From a phage, in assembly GCA_012646845.1 (NCBI GenBank), contig GCA_012646845.1_4707.2: a stretch of DNA of 44,786 bases; one strand, 5' to 3'. Within the stretch, counting starts at the first letter, position 1; the number at the start of each line of letters is the position of its first letter. The notes beneath the pieces are model-generated. The model saw only the letters and a program-made list of their open reading frames with translations. It ran no database searches and was not told where the DNA came from. A program made the position numbers and the translations under genes. This document shows, piece after piece, positions 12,640-27,412 of the stretch.

Positions 12640-12687
12640 GCATAACCCTCCTCCTGGCCTGAACCAGGAGGAAGGGTGTTTTTATGC
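12640..12687. terminator. Bidirectional terminator hairpin between convergent genes
   Basis: GCATAA-CCCTCCTCCTGG-CCTGAA-CCAGGAGGAAGGGTG-TTTTTATGC; perfect extended inverted repeat. Confidence 0.65.
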
Positions 12688-14196
12688 CGCGAAGGTTGGC
12701 TTGTTGCTGGCTTCCCAGGCGGTAGCACCGGTGTCGAAATCGGCATGTTCTGTTACGTTGGAGACGTTCCAACCGGAGATATCCTGGTTGAACGCCTTTG
12801 CGTCCTCAAACATGCTCCGCATCGAAACAATATTAGACATGTTCCAGCTACCGATGTTCTGGTTGAACACAACAGCACTACGGAACATGCGATCGGCATT
12901 CGTTACGTTCGACATATCCCAACCGATGACGTTAGGATCGTTGAACTTCGAACAGCCTAAGAACATCGAGTTGGTGCTGGTGACAGCAGTAGGCAGCTCT
13001 GCCGGGACCGACGTCAGGTTGCTAGCACGTTCGAATGACCAGTTACGGACATCATTCTGTTTCCCGAAGCTCAGAACCGCGAGCAGCGCGTTACCGCCGA
13101 GGTTGATTTTCAGGGATTTAAGTCCGCTCTCTTTCCAACCAATCTCGATGCGACCGGCTTGCGTAACGTCGATGCCCGTATTCGCACCTTCGACAACGTC
13201 TACCTTCACATTGTCGTACGAGAGACGATACCAGAGTTCTGGGTCGACGCCGCCGGTAAGAGGAATATCACCATCGCCCAATGGCACGTCAAACGTGTCG
13301 GAGATAACAGAAAGATCCAGCGCACCCGGCTGCACGGTAGCGGTGAAGTAGGTGAAGTCCTCTGGCTCGGTCACGACCTCATGGTAGCGAAGATACACAT
13401 CGCCAGCCCAAGATTCCGTTTCGGCGTAATCCGTGCTAAGATGCACTGCCTTGTATCCGTCATCAAGGTCGTGCACGGCGATTACATACGCATATTCGAG
13501 CAACGTCGCGAACTCAGTGCGGGTGGTTTCATCGTACCCACCCGCTGAGACCAGACGGTCGATAATGTCGTTACGTAACGCATCATCGATAGCGGCACCG
13601 ATTTCCATCGTCGCCACGTTGTGCTTCGCGACGATCTCATCCCAATCTAACGACAGCGACAGCAGACTCAATGAGGCAAGAGAGTCGCTGTTGTGTAAAT
13701 AGTTGAGTGTATAAAGGTCGGTTTTAGCGATGATGGTCACCAGGTCCAACGTATCGTTGGCGACGGTGAACTTGAGTTTACCTGCCCATACGTAGGAGGC
13801 ATCCGCTGCGTTAAGTTCGAGTTCCTTAACGCCGCTGTCTTCAAAGGTCACTGCGGTTTGCAGATCGGCTTCCAAGAAGTCAACGGTTTTGTCTAACGAC
13901 ACCCCATACCGTGCAGCTAACTGATCGACCACAGCGCCGATGGTGGTATCTGCGTTAACGATGAAGCGCAGAGGAAGACCCAGGAAGTTCTTGGTAAGAT
14001 CTCGGCGAACATAGACCAGGGTTTGTTCGTTGAAGTAGGGGCTACCCTCTAACGGTTTGATGCGGACACTCACCGCATCTGTAGCGTCGTCCTTAGCGAC
14101 AAACTCAAACGTCACGTCCTGTTCGGTCAGCGTAAGCTGGTTCTTACTGTTAACCAGTTCCAGCAACTCATCTTTCCAGTGTTGTAATAACTTCAT
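12682..14196 (-). CDS. putative receptor-binding/tail fibre protein with C-terminal DUF285 (BspA-like) repeats
   Basis: C-terminal repeats GWDMSNVTNADRMF / FNQNIGSWNMSNIVSMRSMF / FNQDISGWNVSNVT; N-terminal domain shared with 15364..17976 and 23321..23848. Confidence 0.75.
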   Translation of the reverse strand: MKLLQHWKDELLELVNSKNQLTLTEQDVTFEFVAKDDATDAVSVRIKPLEGSPYFNEQTLVYVRRDLTKNFLGLPLRFIVNADTTIGAVVDQLAARYGVSLDKTVDFLEADLQTAVTFEDSGVKELELNAADASYVWAGKLKFTVANDTLDLVTIIAKTDLYTLNYLHNSDSLASLSLLSLSLDWDEIVAKHNVATMEIGAAIDDALRNDIIDRLVSAGGYDETTRTEFATLLEYAYVIAVHDLDDGYKAVHLSTDYAETESWAGDVYLRYHEVVTEPEDFTYFTATVQPGALDLSVISDTFDVPLGDGDIPLTGGVDPELWYRLSYDNVKVDVVEGANTGIDVTQAGRIEIGWKESGLKSLKINLGGNALLAVLSFGKQNDVRNWSFERASNLTSVPAELPTAVTSTNSMFLGCSKFNDPNVIGWDMSNVTNADRMFRSAVVFNQNIGSWNMSNIVSMRSMFEDAKAFNQDISGWNVSNVTEHADFDTGATAWEASNKPTFAA

Positions 14197-17998: not shown

Positions 17999-18640
17999 TT
18001 AGATGTACTGCTTACCGCCCACGAAGGAAGTTAGCCAGTTCCCACTGACAAGCTGTGATACCCAGCCAGGCACTGCCCTGCCATTCTGACTCATCACATT
18101 ACCACACCAACCAGGGAATCCGGGACGGATATAATAGAAAGTTAAATTGTAGAGATGGCAATTCCATACTGCAACGTTATGTTTACGAGCAACCGCTTTA
18201 AAGACAAACGCAACGGGTAAAGGCGACGATAGCAATTCGGTCACGGGGACGGCCGACCAGTTCGCATTTGCGTTCCACGGTTGCCAGGTATGGCTACGCG
18301 AGTCGCAATATACGTTACCGTTGTTACCTCGCCCACCCGCATTCCACCATAGCGACGGACTCATGTTCTTAAGTGAGGTAAATTGCTGTGGTGGAATATT
18401 CGGAATAATAACAGGGTTGACGCCTTGCCCATTTTTCTTTTCTTTTGCGTTCACATACCCGCTTATCGATTCGAGGTATTTGACACCAGGATAATTGTTC
18501 TGGACTCGTGTCGCAATATCACGGACATCAAACGTCCAGCAGATCATGGTGTTGTAGTAAGCATCGGTGTTGTCGTACCATGCGTTACCATCTTGTAAAC
18601 GTGCGCCACTATTCGGTGTTTTATCTGTGCTTATAGCCAT
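17999..18640 (-). CDS. hypothetical tail-associated protein, paralog 1 (213 aa)
   Basis: C-terminal 40 aa (RPGFPGW.GNVMSQNGRAVPGWVSQLVSGNWLTSFVGGKQY) identical to neighbour apart from one residue. Confidence 0.7.
   Translation of the reverse strand: MAISTDKTPNSGARLQDGNAWYDNTDAYYNTMICWTFDVRDIATRVQNNYPGVKYLESISGYVNAKEKKNGQGVNPVIIPNIPPQQFTSLKNMSPSLWWNAGGRGNNGNVYCDSRSHTWQPWNANANWSAVPVTELLSSPLPVAFVFKAVARKHNVAVWNCHLYNLTFYYIRPGFPGWCGNVMSQNGRAVPGWVSQLVSGNWLTSFVGGKQYI
18035..18103. repeat. 69-nt near-identical direct repeat, copy 1
   Basis: Matches 18792-18860 with a single mismatch. Confidence 0.85.
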
Positions 18641-18746
18641 GGTATTGTCCTATACTACGATGATTGAGGTATCGAATGTCGGACGCCTGGTGTCGTCTGG
18701 TAGTACATACAGAAACACCCGCAGATAAAACAATAACTCCCATCAA

Positions 18747-19412
18747 TTAAATTGATGTTAGATACTGCTTACCTCCGACAAACGATGTCAACCAGTTCCC
18801 ACTGACAAGCTGTGATACCCAGCCAGGCACTGCCCTGCCATTCTGGCTCATCACATTACCAGCCCATCCCGGAAAACCAGGTCGGAAAATATATACTTGA
18901 ATATGTGTTAAAGCGTTATCATTACCTCCACCAACAGCAACATTACGACGTCCGGATGATGGGAAATATTCTTTTAAGAACAGGGGATCGTTTGCCAATA
19001 AAGAAGCAGGCCAAGGATTAGCGGATGCGTCAACATCGAATTCGGTCCATCGCCATTTGCGTCCGGTATCGAACCAGGTTGACGTACCGCCACCACGCAC
19101 CGCAAGATTGCGTGCATCACGGGCACTGTATATTGATTCGATGTTTCGCCACCCACCTTTTGCGGCGTTTGCCGCATAGCAAACCGCATTACCACCATTC
19201 TTCTTTTCGTAAACGGTTCGTTTGATATGAACACGGTCGATAAACGCTTCACCGTATTTGTTGACAAGTGTTTGCGCAATATCACGAAGATCGTGCATAT
19301 GAAAGGCGATGTCTTCGTTGTGGAACCACGTTGTCGGGTTCCAAACGGTGCCGTTTGGTTCGGCACACATCGATCTGATATTGTTGCGCTGATTAATCGC
19401 GATAAAGCCCAT
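18747..19412 (-). CDS. hypothetical tail-associated protein, paralog 2
   Basis: Start moved to ATG at 19412 (GAGGTG RBS; track start at 19475 lies inside an upstream hairpin); N-terminal DLRDIAQTLVNKY aligns with DVRDIATRVQNNY of paralog 1. Confidence 0.7.
   Translation of the reverse strand: MGFIAINQRNNIRSMCAEPNGTVWNPTTWFHNEDIAFHMHDLRDIAQTLVNKYGEAFIDRVHIKRTVYEKKNGGNAVCYAANAAKGGWRNIESIYSARDARNLAVRGGGTSTWFDTGRKWRWTEFDVDASANPWPASLLANDPLFLKEYFPSSGRRNVAVGGGNDNALTHIQVYIFRPGFPGWAGNVMSQNGRAVPGWVSQLVSGNWLTSFVGGKQYLTSI
18792..18860. repeat. 69-nt near-identical direct repeat, copy 2
   Basis: Matches 18035-18103 with a single mismatch. Confidence 0.85.
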
Positions 19413-19527
19413 GGCCCACCTCGTTTCTATTCTCGAAGGAAATTTCATACGATGACGCCATAACAGCTCCCCCATCCCCCCAACCCGTAAGGGAAGGGAG
19501 GATGTAAGGGAAGGAGGAGCTATTTAA

Positions 19528-20031
19528 TTACTGGCTGACAACCTCAACGGAACTGGGATCGGCGATCAGCGCACGGTCGGTAGAACAATTGAAGAAGACC
19601 ATCCCAACACCATCGCCGTTCGAGTTCAGGGTTGAACTTACGTAAGACAATGTTGGTTTATTCATACGGTAGAAGCGTTCGCTGGTGGTGGTATTGAACC
19701 CCAGATCAACGTAGTCTTTCACCGTGGTGTACAGCTGTGTGGACTCGAAAACGGTTACCGGAGAGTCAACGGTAAACTGACTGCCTTCATCCACAACCAG
19801 AACTTTATCGTTCCAGATTTCAGTGGTTGAGAACTTCGGTTTCCAATGTTCGAATTCCTGGGTTGCGCCCCAGCAAGAATACACAGCGAGATTGCTGTTC
19901 TTCTCGACAGGTTTTAACCCCACCAGTTGTGTCAGGCCTTTATCCAGGTTCGGTAAGCCTTCCAGCGTAGCACACCCACCCAGAGAAAGTACCATCAACA
20001 TACCGAGAATAATCGCGCAAAGTTTCTTCAT
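19528..20031 (-). CDS. lipoprotein (167 aa)
   Basis: Signal peptide with lipobox MKKLCAIILGMLMVLSLGGC. Confidence 0.75.
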   Translation of the reverse strand: MKKLCAIILGMLMVLSLGGCATLEGLPNLDKGLTQLVGLKPVEKNSNLAVYSCWGATQEFEHWKPKFSTTEIWNDKVLVVDEGSQFTVDSPVTVFESTQLYTTVKDYVDLGFNTTTSERFYRMNKPTLSYVSSTLNSNGDGVGMVFFNCSTDRALIADPSSVEVVSQ

Positions 20032-20075
20032 CGTCGGATTTCCTTATGTGTTAACGGAAGTGATTTCCATAGTAA

Positions 20076-20660
20076 TTACACAGCTGTAGGAAGTTCAGGC
20101 CAATCGATATTTGGTGCTGTTGATGTGTCAACGCGGTGCAGAGCCACCCGATACTTTTTCCATGCTGTCAGCATCGACACCTCTTCTTCCGTTGCGATCT
20201 CCAGATCCACAGCATCCTGAAGTGGCGCAATACGATCATTCGCTGCCTGCATCAGACTGTTTTTTGTTTCTTCCGCCTCCCGGACATGGGATTGTTTTTC
20301 CGCATCTGTATCTTTCACCCAGGTTGTTCCGTCCCACTTCTGAAACTCTCCTTCCGGGGATAACCAAGTAGTATTTTCTGGTAACGGACCGAGTTCAGAA
20401 ATAAATAACGCGTCGCCGGAAGCCACATCATAGACGGTTTTACCCCGATGGTCTTCAACAATATACCACGATTCATTTTCACTGTTAAAAACTGCCACAA
20501 AGTCAGCAGGAATTTCCGGTGGGGCGATATCTGTAGAATTAGCTGGTAGTCCCGTATGCGGTGGAATATATGCGTCGCCTTCACCAATAAACTCATTGGT
20601 TCCGGCCAGCAGATTATAAATTTTTATGGTTTGTGGTTCATCACTCATTCTGAATGCCAT
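20076..20660 (-). CDS. tail fibre assembly protein (chaperone)
   Basis: Start overlaps fibre stop (TAATG); sequence resembles Tfa/gpG-type chaperones; position immediately downstream of fibre gene. Confidence 0.8.
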
Positions 20661-23314
20661 TATGCAAGCCTCACGATGTAGTTAAATGCGATGTTTTTGA
20701 CGGTGTTTTCCGCGTTACCCGCGGCGTTAACGGTGATGGTGTGTCCATGCGATCCAATCGCAACCGAGTGCGTATGCGCACCAATACCTACAGTATGTGC
20801 ATGTGCACCGGCACTCGCGGCTGTACCGGACAATGAGTGACTATGAGCGCCAGCAGAAGAAGTGTTGACATCGTATTTAGCATAATCAGGCGACCCACTT
20901 CCCGGAGTACCACTGGTGCCACCTGCGACAAATCTCATCGAGTGGGTGTGTGCTCCAGCCGTGTTTGTGGAACCACTCAGACTGTGCGTATGCGCCCCGG
21001 TGTTATTCGTGGTTTTAGTGCCGTAATCAAACGACGATGTGGTTTTCGTCCCCAAATCCGTACCGGATGCGCTGGCGCTATGGTTGTGCGATTTAATGCC
21101 GTCCTGTTCCTGAGACAATACAGCACGACCACTGGCAGGTTTGCCCTTAATCGTCCAGCCACGCATATCAGGAATAACGCCTGACGGATAAGCCACTGCA
21201 AGTTTCGGGTATACAGATTTGTCAAAAGTCTGCCCTTGCATCAGAGCATAACCAGACGGAACGGTATCTGAAGGCCATGGAATAGGCGTACCAACAGGCA
21301 ACGCTGAACCGCCATCCGAACCCGCATCTTTGGTTGGTATAACGATGTTCGCCGAGCCGTCGAACTCAATACCGTTGATTGTGACAGCCGTTTGCAATTT
21401 CGTGGCTGTCGCAGCGTTACCCGTCGTATTCTGATTACCAACCGCATTGACGCCCGGTAATGCAATATCCGCTGTTCCGTCAAAGGCAACACCACCGATT
21501 TTACGTGCGGTTTGTAGCTTGGTTGCACTAGCGGCGTTACCGCTGGTATTCTGGGTGCCAGCTTTGTTAACACCGGGGAGATCGATGTTAGCAGAACCAT
21601 CGAAGCTGACGCCACCTATCGTTCTTGCGGTAGCGAGTTTAGCTGCTGTGGCTGCATTATTACCCACTTTCAGCCAATCATCCCATGGGCCATCCTGGCC
21701 GTTCCATGCTGCCGTTAAACTACGTACGTAAATATTGCCGGTACGTACAGTGTAACGTTGCGTTCCACCGAATTGTCCGGCAGGGAGCACTTCAAGGTAA
21801 CCTGCGGCATTTGCTTCAGGGAAATTGTGGGCGACGTCCGCGTTCGTTGATACTGGTTTAGACCAAATACCCACGGACGCTTCAACCGGACCGTAAGTAT
21901 TCAGATTTGCGTCGGTGGGGAGCTGTCCTCGAAAACGCTGGAATTGTGTTGCCGATAACCCCAACGTTGTTTGCATGCTTTCAATGCTGGATTGCTGCAG
22001 TAACGTCCGTGCTGTCGACGTAATCACGGTAAGCGCAACTTTATTAACACCGGTGAAATACGGGAGTTTGTCTGCTGATGTCACTAAACCTGAAAAGGCG
22101 GTCAGTAATTCGTTAAGGGGTTGCTTCCCAGCTAACGCATTTGTTACCGTCGTTGCGAAATTAGGATCGCTTCCTATAGCTCGAGCCAGCTTATTAAGCG
22201 TATTTAGCGTCGCTGGTGACGAGTCGATCAGTGCCGTGATCGCACGCATCACAAATTCCGTGTTGGCTATCTGTCGACTGCTATCGTTAACTGCTGCGGT
22301 GGGCGCTGCTGGCGTACCAGTGAATACAGGGCTATTAAGATCCGCCTTGAGGGCGATGAGGCGTTTAAGCGCTTCAACATCAACTTTCAGGTTTTCCCAT
22401 CCGATGAGAGAACCATCACCGTTGGCATGATAACGGTTGTACCAGAAGTCACCGTTAACGCCAAAAAAGAATATACATTTCTCTTCGTTTTGTGGACCGG
22501 AACTATTTCGTGATGAGTCGATATATTTGATTTCAATAAGACCGCTAAACACCACCCCTGGGATTATATTGTTGTCTCCAGCTGACTGTGATACCTGGTA
22601 CATCCCCGGGGTTGCGGCTTTAACCCATGTTAAGAATTCTGTTACTCCAGCGGTACCGCTAAAATTCTTAACGTCGGTAAGTATCGCCCCATAACCGAAC
22701 ATACCGGGTAGAGCCACTCGTCCGCTGGTACGATCACGAATATCTGTCGCAACAACAGGCAATTGTTTACGAACGGCATTAACCGCTTTAGGCGTGGCCG
22801 ATTTTGTCTCGTCGTCGCTATCGGTTTCATTACTTAGAATAGTTAAACCGCGTGTAGCAGTAGTTGCATCAGGAAGAAATGCGTTATCCAACACCTTAAG
22901 CTGTATTGCACTCGTATTACTAACAACGACATGCACCTGACAGTTAAGAACGCTGGTTGCGCCTTCGGCAGGCGTAGGCTTATATCTTTCTGGCGCACTG
23001 CAGACGGCAATCAGAACACCTTGGTCGTCATACAGACCGATCTCACGTACCCAGAACCCACCTTGACTAGCAGGAATAATACCCTCAACGATAATCCTGG
23101 TTGTACTATCGCCATCCGTATGGACATTGGAAACTTCCCCACGATAAACTTCATGGACAAGCGCTGTTTGACTGGTGGTTGGGGTTGGGATCGAACCACT
23201 ACCATCGCCAACGGCAAAGTGTGTGATTTTTAGTTTCTTACCGTCAGGAAGTAACGCTGCAGCGATACGTTCTGCGCCTTTATCGGTAACGACCGTTTTA
23301 TATGCTGTACTCAT
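20660..23314 (-). CDS. tail fibre protein, P2 gpH-like N-terminus, internal repeats, His-rich C-terminus
   Basis: N-terminus [21 protein letters not shown]...[20 protein letters not shown] resembles gpH-type collar domain; ~39-aa tandem repeats ([28 protein letters not shown]); C-terminal GAHTHS repeats. Confidence 0.9.
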
Positions 23315-23871: not shown

Positions 23872-24462
23872 TCAGATTAAATATAAACTTCTTAAACGTG
23901 GAACACGATTCGAGATAAACGTAAACGGCCTTAACGACCGCATAAAATTCCGCGCATACCCTCTATCCCGACAAAGCGAGGGGGGTTTATCCATCGGAAA
24001 ATCCGTAGGAGACCGATAGGTGTTTTCCTGTTGATACGTAAACAAGAAATCGATCCAATGACTGATGTAAGTGAATAGCTTCTCAGGGATAGCTAAACCG
24101 CGATCATGCAGTCCTGCATAAAGCCTCACCGCTGAAAAGAAAGCCCTCGGCTGATAACCAGACCATGCTGTCTGATCGCCGAAGTGGTACATCGTAAAAT
24201 CATTAACTTTCGATCCGCTTGGCGCATCCCAACGATCCCACACGTACGCACTCGCACCCGACCCTAAAACCCCGAATTTCTGATAATACCACTGCTGTGA
24301 GTCATACCAGAAATTCACAACATTCCGAATCATGAGGTCACGTCGTTCAGCCGGTACGTCCATATCCAGGAAGACCCATGGATGTTGGTAGCCAGGATAA
24401 GGCTGACCACGCCAACTGTCGAACGTCAACGCTTCCTCTTGCCATGATGCTTCAGGATACAT
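23872..24462 (-). CDS. hypothetical protein, Trp/Tyr-rich (196 aa)
   Basis: ORF track; first gene after strong terminator. Confidence 0.6.
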   Translation of the reverse strand: MYPEASWQEEALTFDSWRGQPYPGYQHPWVFLDMDVPAERRDLMIRNVVNFWYDSQQWYYQKFGVLGSGASAYVWDRWDAPSGSKVNDFTMYHFGDQTAWSGYQPRAFFSAVRLYAGLHDRGLAIPEKLFTYISHWIDFLFTYQQENTYRSPTDFPMDKPPSLCRDRGYARNFMRSLRPFTFISNRVPRLRSLYLI

Positions 24463-24597: not shown

Positions 24598-25176
24598 TTA
24601 ATAAGGAATCAGATCGTTAAGCTTTTCTTCTTCAATGACAAAGAAGTTGTTCTGGTCGTCTAAATCTGTTAGCAGGACTTGTCCGACAGTAAAGCACGTG
24701 CCACCCTTCTTAGGCATCCATACCGGCTCATTCGTTACCTTATCGGGATACCATTTGAAACGATTGGTATCCAAGAAGAACGCAGCTTTGTTCGCTTTAT
24801 CCGTTGATCGGTAGCTTACTAACGCTGGCCATTCGATCCAGGTATTTGTGCATGGCACATGTAAAGGATACCATGCACGCCAACGTTTGCCCGGCTTGTT
24901 AGGATCAACCCAATACTCGGCAGTCAATACAGCATCTTTATAATGTTTCTGTATTAACATTTCGAGCACAAGCTCATTGCCTTTTGATGAATCTAAAGTC
25001 ACTTCAGCCATATAAAGAGATTTAGGTAATCCAGACTGTTTTGTGGGTAGCGTTACGACACCGGTAACCAACGGTCTGCTCGGCTTACGCTTCCGTTCTT
25101 TCCGATGTGTGTAAAGGAATAGCCCGATAGCTGCGGCAACAAGTATAATAAACAACACTACCTTAATCCAATTCAT
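24598..25176 (-). CDS. hypothetical membrane-anchored protein (192 aa)
   Basis: N-terminal TM segment WIKVVLFIILVAAAIGLFLY followed by basic stretch. Confidence 0.65.
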   Translation of the reverse strand: MNWIKVVLFIILVAAAIGLFLYTHRKERKRKPSRPLVTGVVTLPTKQSGLPKSLYMAEVTLDSSKGNELVLEMLIQKHYKDAVLTAEYWVDPNKPGKRWRAWYPLHVPCTNTWIEWPALVSYRSTDKANKAAFFLDTNRFKWYPDKVTNEPVWMPKKGGTCFTVGQVLLTDLDDQNNFFVIEEEKLNDLIPY

Positions 25177-26914: not shown

Positions 26915-27412
26915 TTACGCGTGTCGTCGTTTACCAAAGAAAATATGATTGTCTACCACGGTGATATTGGTAGCGTTTTTTCTGAAATGTTTAGGGCGAA
27001 GATGTTTCGCGTTAAAGAATACGGCTCCTCGTGTTGGATCGGCTTTACGGTAAGCAACAATGTCGTTATTGCGCAATGTTGCGACCTCTCGTGCTATCGC
27101 TCTTGCACGATTGAATGCAGCATGATCGCGTATAACAATTCGTTGTTGTCTTGCCCAGGGGAATTGACCTCTTTGCAGTACGACGTCTCTGACGTTCGTA
27201 GGGAATCGGTAGTCCATAGATCGATTATGTATTAAAAACGCCACGGAGTATTGCCCTTTTACAGATTCGCCTCTGGCTTCCATATACACAGCGCATGCGA
27301 CGATCTCTTTCCGGCAATCGATTCTAGGCCCTGCGTTCACCGATGCTTGACTGAACGGTGCGATAAGCAACATAACAAGCCCTAAAACCAACGTGTGTAA
27401 AATACCTTGCAT
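26915..27412 (-). CDS. SleB-like cell-wall hydrolase with N-terminal export signal (candidate endolysin)
   Basis: Hydrophobic N-terminus ILHTLVLGLVMLLIAPFSQA; motifs AVYMEARGE and LIHNR resemble SleB/CwlJ hydrolase family. Confidence 0.55.
   Translation of the reverse strand: MQGILHTLVLGLVMLLIAPFSQASVNAGPRIDCRKEIVACAVYMEARGESVKGQYSVAFLIHNRSMDYRFPTNVRDVVLQRGQFPWARQQRIVIRDHAAFNRARAIAREVATLRNNDIVAYRKADPTRGAVFFNAKHLRPKHFRKNATNITVVDNHIFFGKRRHA

Follow-up and report, generated by a model that had tools for sequence, protein, structure and literature searches.

A conserved phage lipoprotein, predicted to reach the outer membrane, encoded at the end of an exchanged tail-fibre module in a Goslar-like jumbo phage

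The window analysed here, a stretch of 44,786 nucleotides of phage DNA (NCBI GenBank assembly GCA_012646845.1, contig GCA_012646845.1_4707.2), carries a short gene on its minus strand next to the tail-fibre genes. The question that this locus raises is whether the gene encodes a genuine lipoprotein and, if so, what such a protein would do in the envelope of the infected cell. A first-pass annotation had taken the product for a lipoprotein with the lipobox LSLGGC, encoded immediately downstream of a fibre/chaperone pair, and had proposed it as a superinfection-exclusion or receptor-masking factor on the paradigm of T5 Llp and FhuA. The gene and its export signal comprise the following features.

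19528..20031, minus strand: coding sequence of the lipoprotein (167 aa; ATG at 20029-20031, stop codon at 19528-19530)
19975..20031, minus strand: predicted signal peptide, residues 1-19 (MKKLCAIILGMLMVLSLGG), read from the sequence with a PROSITE-type lipobox rule and kept in all homologs
19972..19983, minus strand: lipobox L17-G18-G19-C20, conserved columns in 22 homologs
20039..20045, minus strand: putative ribosome-binding site AAGGAAA, 7 nt upstream of the lipoprotein ATG, read from the sequence

The open reading frame begins with MKKLCAIILGMLMVLSLGGCATLEG, and the N-terminus of its product, MKKLCAIILGMLMVLSLGGC, has a basic n-region (K2 and K3) followed by a hydrophobic core of 14 residues and then the lipobox. 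This layout of a signal for signal peptidase II, MKK + LCAIILGMLMVLS + LGG|C20, passed the PROSITE PS51257-type rule, and a search of all six frames with a rule of this type left the gene as the sole credible lipobox ORF in the 44.8-kb window. The LSLGGC motif noticed earlier corresponds to residues 15-20, and the lipoprotein call was upheld both by the rule and by conservation: across 22 homologs, which share an overall identity of 27-35%, L17 and C20 were invariant and G19 was nearly invariant (at least 90%). The retention of the lipobox at such a low overall identity indicates that the signal is under selection and is not a chance occurrence, and Cys20 is predicted to be the lipid-modified first residue of the mature protein. 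The cleavage context is MKKLCAIILGMLMVLSLGG|C with Ala at position +2, and Asp at +2 was absent from all 22 homologs. The Lol sorting rule for the +2 residue of lipoproteins is established in E. coli, and with Ala at this position the Lol pathway would be expected to deliver the protein to the outer membrane, a location that we infer from the signal. Thus, the gene encodes a real and conserved phage lipoprotein, with the outer membrane as its predicted destination.

Comparison with phage genomes showed that the window is closely related to vB_EcoM_Goslar, an Escherichia phage and one of the nucleus-forming jumbo phages of E. coli; between 10 and 30 kb of the window, 79% of the sequence matched Goslar at 92.6% nucleotide identity. 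The lipoprotein is the ortholog of Goslar gp88 (Goslar_00088, HOV27_gp088, YP_009820773.1; 96.4% amino acid identity), which has the same signal peptide and the same place after the fibre chaperone, and the ortholog in SPN3US is gp159 (18.1 kDa). The dN/dS ratio of the gene between the window and Goslar was 0.084, like that of the neighbours gp85-gp87, which indicates purifying selection. The sole family-database match was phrog_9559. A family-profile search of 5.8 billion proteins returned 27 clusters, and an HMM search of 1.84 billion representatives gave 17 matches, the strong ones being family-sized and four weak ones being longer proteins; no captured host gene or bacterial homolog was evident in this HMM search. 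With tblastn the gene was found in 55 phage records, which included Goslar, SPN3US-like phages of Salmonella, E. coli and Proteus, and Erwinia phages of several genera. No copy was found in E. coli chromosomes and plasmids, and an origin of the gene as a prophage moron was rejected because these genomes lack it. When the lipoprotein and 22 family members were searched against Pfam, NCBIfam and PADLOC, no match was obtained beyond a generic lipid-attachment-site model, and a profile search of PDB sequences with the family gave no match. Literature searches brought up nothing relevant on SPN3US gp159 or on a lipoprotein or spanin of SPN3US, and the published phage Tn-seq covers no phage with this family. 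By these sequence comparisons the family is small, found in phages only, and conserved by vertical descent in those that infect E. coli, Salmonella and Erwinia.

The part of the protein that follows the lipidated cysteine was modelled with AlphaFold2, and the features recognised in the model and in the alignment are given below.

19567..19896, minus strand: predicted beta-barrel domain, residues about 46-155 (AlphaFold2 model)
19873-19875, minus strand: invariant Cys53, first barrel strand, conserved column
19585-19587, minus strand: invariant Cys149, last barrel strand, conserved column
19897..19971, minus strand: predicted tether of about 25 residues from the lipidated Cys to the barrel, low-confidence in the model

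The barrel core had a pLDDT of 84-91 over most of its length; residues 17-36 fell below 50, and the tether is shorter in the SPN3US-like homologs. The two invariant cysteines, placed on the first and the last barrel strand, probably form a Cys53-Cys149 disulfide. The mature protein has 148 residues, six of which are proline (4% proline). A Foldseek search of the model against the PDB gave nothing below E = 0.01, and the fold is predicted to be a generic beta-barrel without a specific structural relative. The lipobox, the lack of Asp at +2 and the invariant cysteines together fit a protein that would be lipidated after export, would reach the outer membrane and would form its disulfide in the periplasm. 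One alternative would make such a protein a periplasmic inhibitor of a peptidoglycan hydrolase, like MliC/PliC or T4 Spackle, with the tail-tip lysozyme of superinfecting phages or the phage's own endolysin as its supposed target. This function appears very unlikely, as the structural scores were no better than those of dozens of unrelated 8-stranded barrels, no Pfam match to MliC or PliC was obtained even at E = 5, and the comparison of the model with the PDB brought up nothing significant.

The timing of expression was approached through the sequence upstream of the ribosome-binding site, where a short motif was noticed.

20068..20071, minus strand: TATG motif, candidate late promoter of the non-virion RNA polymerase (nvRNAP); predicted start G20068, 37 nt upstream of the ATG

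The non-virion RNA polymerase of phiKZ recognises late promoters with the consensus TATG, in which the G is +1 (PMC4666361). In five of the six lineages of the family, TATG was present 34-61 nt upstream of the lipoprotein start codon, against a chance of 0.07-0.09 per lineage, and in the most divergent Goslar-like contig it was preceded by a hairpin and a T-run that looked terminator-like when read by eye. Many of the most abundant Goslar virion proteins (MCP, sheath, gp23, gp30, gp188, gp214 and gp158) have genes that are also preceded by the motif, which is absent upstream of the Goslar chimallin and PhuZ genes. The distribution of these motifs suggests that the promoter logic of phiKZ carries over to Goslar-like phages, and the lipoprotein is probably made late and strongly from its own TATG promoter. 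A TATATTACC-like element was seen upstream of the chimallin gene.

The genes on the upstream side of the lipoprotein gene were compared with those of Goslar and of its relatives.

20076..20660, minus strand: tail fibre assembly protein (Caudo_TAP, 194 aa; Pfam 7e-43), in lambdoid-like DNA
20660..23314, minus strand: tail fibre of 884 aa (Phage_tail_fib, Collar and fibre repeats), with residues 1-664 like Goslar gp90

The lipoprotein gene indeed lies downstream of the fibre/chaperone pair, as had been noted earlier, on the same strand and after a gap of 44 nt. Residues 1-664 of the fibre have 83% identity with Goslar gp90; residues 665-884 bear no relation to it and make up a lambdoid-type tip, and the chaperone of the window shares 32% identity with Goslar gp89. 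Relative to Goslar, the stretch 20118-21335 of the window has been replaced, and with it the fibre tip and the larger part of the chaperone; its DNA is 85-88% identical to lambdoid side-tail-fibre/tfa genes. This is a recent swap of a host-range module between a jumbo lytic phage and temperate phages, with its breakpoint about 90 nt upstream of the lipoprotein start. Five Goslar-like genomes had five different fibre/chaperone modules with the same lipoprotein downstream, so that its place at the end of the host-recognition module has been kept in all five. Apart from the window and Goslar, these are three contigs, one with a Gly_rich_2 fibre and Caudo_TAP, one with a fibre and DUF4376, and one with a 1375-aa protein. 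The lipoprotein gene of SPN3US-like and Erwinia phages stands alone on its strand and not beside a fibre. In SPN3US itself, gp159 is flanked on one side by the DUF7941 protein gp160, with the DUF4376 protein gp161 beside gp160, and on the other by the DUF1353 protein gp157, the weakly Peptidase_M15-like gp158 and the GH108 endolysin gp156.

These comparisons bear on the T5 Llp/FhuA paradigm, under which the lipoprotein would be a mask, of the Llp or Cor type, for the receptor used by the adjacent tail fibre. T5 Llp is likewise a phage outer-membrane lipoprotein encoded beside a receptor-binding gene, and the position of a predicted outer-membrane lipoprotein directly downstream of a fibre and its chaperone, which is kept in Goslar-like genomes, speaks for such a mask; by analogy with T5 Llp and Cor, a small beta-rich domain facing the periplasm could be a plausible shared way of working. 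However, BLASTP with T5 Llp (taken from the T5 record) gave no alignment, and hhalign aligned 18 signal-peptide columns only, at a probability of 35%, so that outside the signal peptide no homology to Llp supports the specific form of the paradigm. At 148 aa, the mature part is longer than that of T5 Llp (about 61 aa); the gene also runs in the same direction as the fibre genes, behind a late-type motif, whereas T5 llp and oad are divergent and llp has a promoter of its own. The co-variation with the fibre that would go with an Llp-type mask also fails, for the lipoprotein is 96% identical, with a dN/dS of 0.08, in phages with unrelated fibre tips and a swapped chaperone. In addition, the family is conserved across phages of other genera, where it is not beside a fibre, and the upstream motif is late-type rather than an early promoter. 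The constancy of the lipoprotein while the fibre tip changes argues that it is not a T5-style mask of the receptor of that fibre, and we consider a mask of this kind extremely unlikely. The lipoprotein and its fibre-adjacent place were thus retained from the first-pass annotation together with envelope-directed exclusion, which stays the leading though tentative idea, and the T5 Llp mechanism was given up.

Published data on the Goslar virion raised the possibility that the protein belongs to the particle. In a 2026 preprint on these virions, gp88, which by its coordinates is the ortholog of the lipoprotein studied here, is one of ten abundant "virion-associated" proteins of unknown function. 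It is represented by 20 peptides and 209 spectra at 77.84% coverage, and its copy number is put at about 740 per virion (range 491-1158); among the unmodelled proteins of CsCl-banded virions it ranks fourth in abundance. It lies outside the atomic/cryoEM model, and the word lipoprotein is not applied to it (bioRxiv 10.64898/2026.04.21.720040). The Goslar fibre gp90 is present at about 43 copies, and gp88 is at 17 times that number (bioRxiv 10.64898/2026.04.21.720040). This abundance, and the location of the gene among DUF7941 and fibre genes in both clades, would agree with a genuine virion-associated protein carried in hundreds of copies on released particles, for example in a DUF7941 filament cloud or in membrane patches; gp88 on such particles could be carried by patches of outer membrane, or by the DUF7941 filament cloud, picked up at lysis.

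The abundance of gp88 in the virion mass spectrometry thus speaks for a virion component, but it is confounded by host outer-membrane proteins in the same sample. Among the peptides listed in Table S4 from A to about D, at least 19 rows belong to OmpA, at least 29 to OmpC, at least 17 to OmpF and at least 2 to Lpp, compared with at least 31 rows for the major capsid protein, and the single-peptide intensities of the host proteins in that part of the table are of the same order as those of gp88 (bioRxiv 10.64898/2026.04.21.720040). The same Goslar run contains gp103, a phage protein secreted by a signal peptide (SPI), and according to the authors nucleus fragments and PhuZ filaments co-purify with the virions (bioRxiv 10.64898/2026.04.21.720040). 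Furthermore, SPN3US gp159 is missing from the virion spectral-count table of that phage, which jumps from gp155 to gp160, while its DUF7941 neighbour gp160 is present with 112-280 spectra. The strictly conserved Sec/SPII signal and the cysteine pair would direct the protein to the periplasm, and such export is hard to square with the assembly of virions in the cytoplasm. For this reason, co-purifying outer-membrane material is favoured as the source of gp88 in the virion preparations, and its being a genuine constituent of released particles, outside the cryoEM model as it is, appears quite unlikely.

The peptides of gp88 were also considered with regard to its processing. Neither ATLEGLPNLDK nor CATLEGLPNLDK (mature N-terminal peptide) is among the Goslar peptides listed from A to about D, which is expected if gp88 is lipidated, and the coverage arithmetic is ambiguous, as the 130 covered residues may be residues 32-167 minus 6 or else may include the 28-residue signal-containing peptide; the unprocessed peptide of gp88 is LCAIILGMLMVLSLGGCATLEGLPNLDK. 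The host outer-membrane peptides found in the listed part of this purified-virion sample mean that copy numbers of envelope-located phage proteins need care. For the Goslar proteome this is a caution that a top "virion-associated" protein with an export and lipidation signal may report outer-membrane debris.

A late phage lipoprotein of the outer membrane also recalls the o-spanins, such as lambda Rz1 and phiKZ gp141.1. [quoted passage not shown] Unlike an o-spanin gene, the lipoprotein gene had no i-spanin neighbour in any clade, the upstream gene in the window being the Caudo_TAP chaperone, which has no TMD; in addition, the mature protein has no proline-rich character and its model is a folded barrel (core pLDDT 84-91), and its identity as an o-spanin was rejected on these grounds. 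A scan of the SPN3US genome revealed a second lipoprotein, gp205 (lipobox LLTGC), whose gene follows that of gp204, a protein with an N-terminal TMD, at a distance of 9 nt, and the two make up an unannotated candidate spanin pair at 180017-180976. Homologs of gp205 were found in 73 phage records, Erwinia relatives included, and not in Goslar. The coexistence of the gp205 family and the family studied here indicates that the latter is not the o-spanin in SPN3US-type phages.

Homologs of gp204 and gp205 are absent from Goslar, no i-/o-spanin pair could be recognised in its genome, and under strict as well as relaxed rules gp88 is the single lipobox ORF of the whole genome. A lysis role for gp88 is therefore possible in this lineage: it would breach or destabilise the outer membrane late in infection, as an unlinked o-spanin-like partner or as a spanin-independent factor, at least in Goslar-like phages. 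Such a role would agree with the late-type promoter and the high abundance, which are traits of lysis lipoproteins, with the location of the gene in SPN3US-like phages within 2 kb of the GH108 endolysin and the weakly Peptidase_M15-like protein, and with the long same-strand gene block that the lipoprotein shares with a Hydrolase_2 endolysin and a holin-like protein. It is set against the arrangement in which an o-spanin gene invariably follows an i-spanin gene (PMC12894885) and not a fibre chaperone, against a mature part modelled as a barrel with 4% proline and not as a short proline-rich chain, and against the separate gp204/gp205 pair of SPN3US and the presence of both lipoproteins in Erwinia relatives. 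On balance, we regard a function as lysis accessory as unlikely. A related composite proposal, that gp88 either rides on released particles and acts in the next infection or is the spanin-independent outer-membrane opener of Goslar-like phages, is distinctly improbable in our estimate.

Lysis-cluster-like genes were observed in the window at 24598-25176 and 26915-27412, both on the minus strand. The cluster encodes a 192-aa protein with an N-terminal TMD and a basic stretch, in a topology like that of the class IIIb holin of phiKZ, and a Hydrolase_2 endolysin with an N-terminal signal or SAR-like segment, and Goslar gp099-gp103, which lie beside it, are small membrane or secreted proteins. One source presents the phiKZ protein gp143 as a holin-specific lysis regulator (PMC12894885), and another assigns it to the DUF7941 baseplate-filament family (bioRxiv 10.64898/2026.04.21.720040).

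The explanation that we put forward tentatively, as possible but well short of probable, is that the lipoprotein is made late and in abundance, reaches the outer membrane, and there conditions the envelope of the infected cell and the debris that this leaves, by receptor-independent exclusion or by protection of the progeny. The protein would be processed by Sec and signal peptidase II, lipidated on Cys20 and delivered by the Lol pathway to the inner leaflet of the outer membrane, where a beta-barrel closed by a disulfide would be held in the periplasm on its tether of about 25 residues; the late-type (TATG) promoter would provide large amounts of it late in infection. The barrel might then bind a component of the envelope, or a part of the penetration machinery of an incoming phage, that is itself conserved, the receptor of the neighbouring fibre tip not being its proposed target, and infected cells and post-lysis debris would no longer be productive targets for related phages or sinks for progeny. 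The whole functional step of this mechanism is one that we infer. It is consistent with the conserved lipobox, +2 position and cysteines, the purifying selection, the kept position, the TATG motif and the abundance of gp88 in lysate-derived material.

Several points count against the exclusion reading. No homology links the family to exclusion, and PADLOC found nothing. T5 llp and T4 imm and sp are early genes, and a protein that is expressed late would come at the wrong time for superinfection exclusion of the classical kind. About 740 copies per virion equivalent would need a very high density in membrane debris, which weighs against a reading based on debris, and the missing spanin in Goslar also weighs against exclusion, as a lysis role may stay possible there. 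TraT of the F plasmid is an abundant surface-exclusion lipoprotein of the outer membrane that lowers entry by kin elements and some phages, and is surface-exposed and oligomeric. By functional analogy, the protein studied here could resemble it as an outer-membrane lipoprotein of a mobile element that is not tied to one variable adhesin, but no search showed a sequence or fold relation between the two.

To our knowledge, phage outer-membrane lipoproteins are known mainly as spanins or small receptor blockers. The family described here would be a third one, unrelated to either and long conserved in nucleus-forming jumbo phages that infect Enterobacterales. If the lipoprotein does exclude kin phages or protect progeny, it would bear on the design of jumbo-phage cocktails, and a role in lysis, if it has one, would supply the outer-membrane step that is missing in Goslar-like phages.

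The remaining surroundings of the gene differ between the window and Goslar on both sides: in the window, the lipoprotein gene is preceded by another fibre tip and another chaperone and is followed by an additional 242-aa gene. The 242-aa ORF (18747..19475, minus strand) lies inside a 725-bp insertion (window 18693-19475) that is absent from Goslar; it is a paralog, with 36% identity, of the 213-aa homolog of gp87 at 17999..18640, and the last ~35 residues of the two are nearly identical. An unusual polypyrimidine tract at 19476-19527 separates this ORF from the lipoprotein stop codon. In published mass spectrometry, Goslar gp87 is present at about 19 copies per virion equivalent. An equation of Goslar gp87 with SPN3US gp157, suggested by their equal length (213 aa), was dropped because gp157 is a DUF1353 protein and gp87 has no such match, the two being set apart by domain matches alone. 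The 189-aa membrane protein gp85 adjoins the lipoprotein gene in one relative and was tried as a conserved partner of the lipoprotein; it was rejected, since its family is found in phages without the lipoprotein and has no member in SPN3US-like phages.

The set of DUF7941 'filament' proteins also varies among close relatives. Goslar gp092, a DUF7941 host-recognition protein encoded by a gene of 3.6 kb, is mostly deleted in the window (23872-24462, with the junction at 24427/24428), and a 196-aa ORF is all that remains of it. At 12682-14196 on the minus strand, the window encodes a 504-aa protein with DUF7941 and DUF285 that has no Goslar counterpart at that position, and a 584-aa protein in one related contig resembles it.
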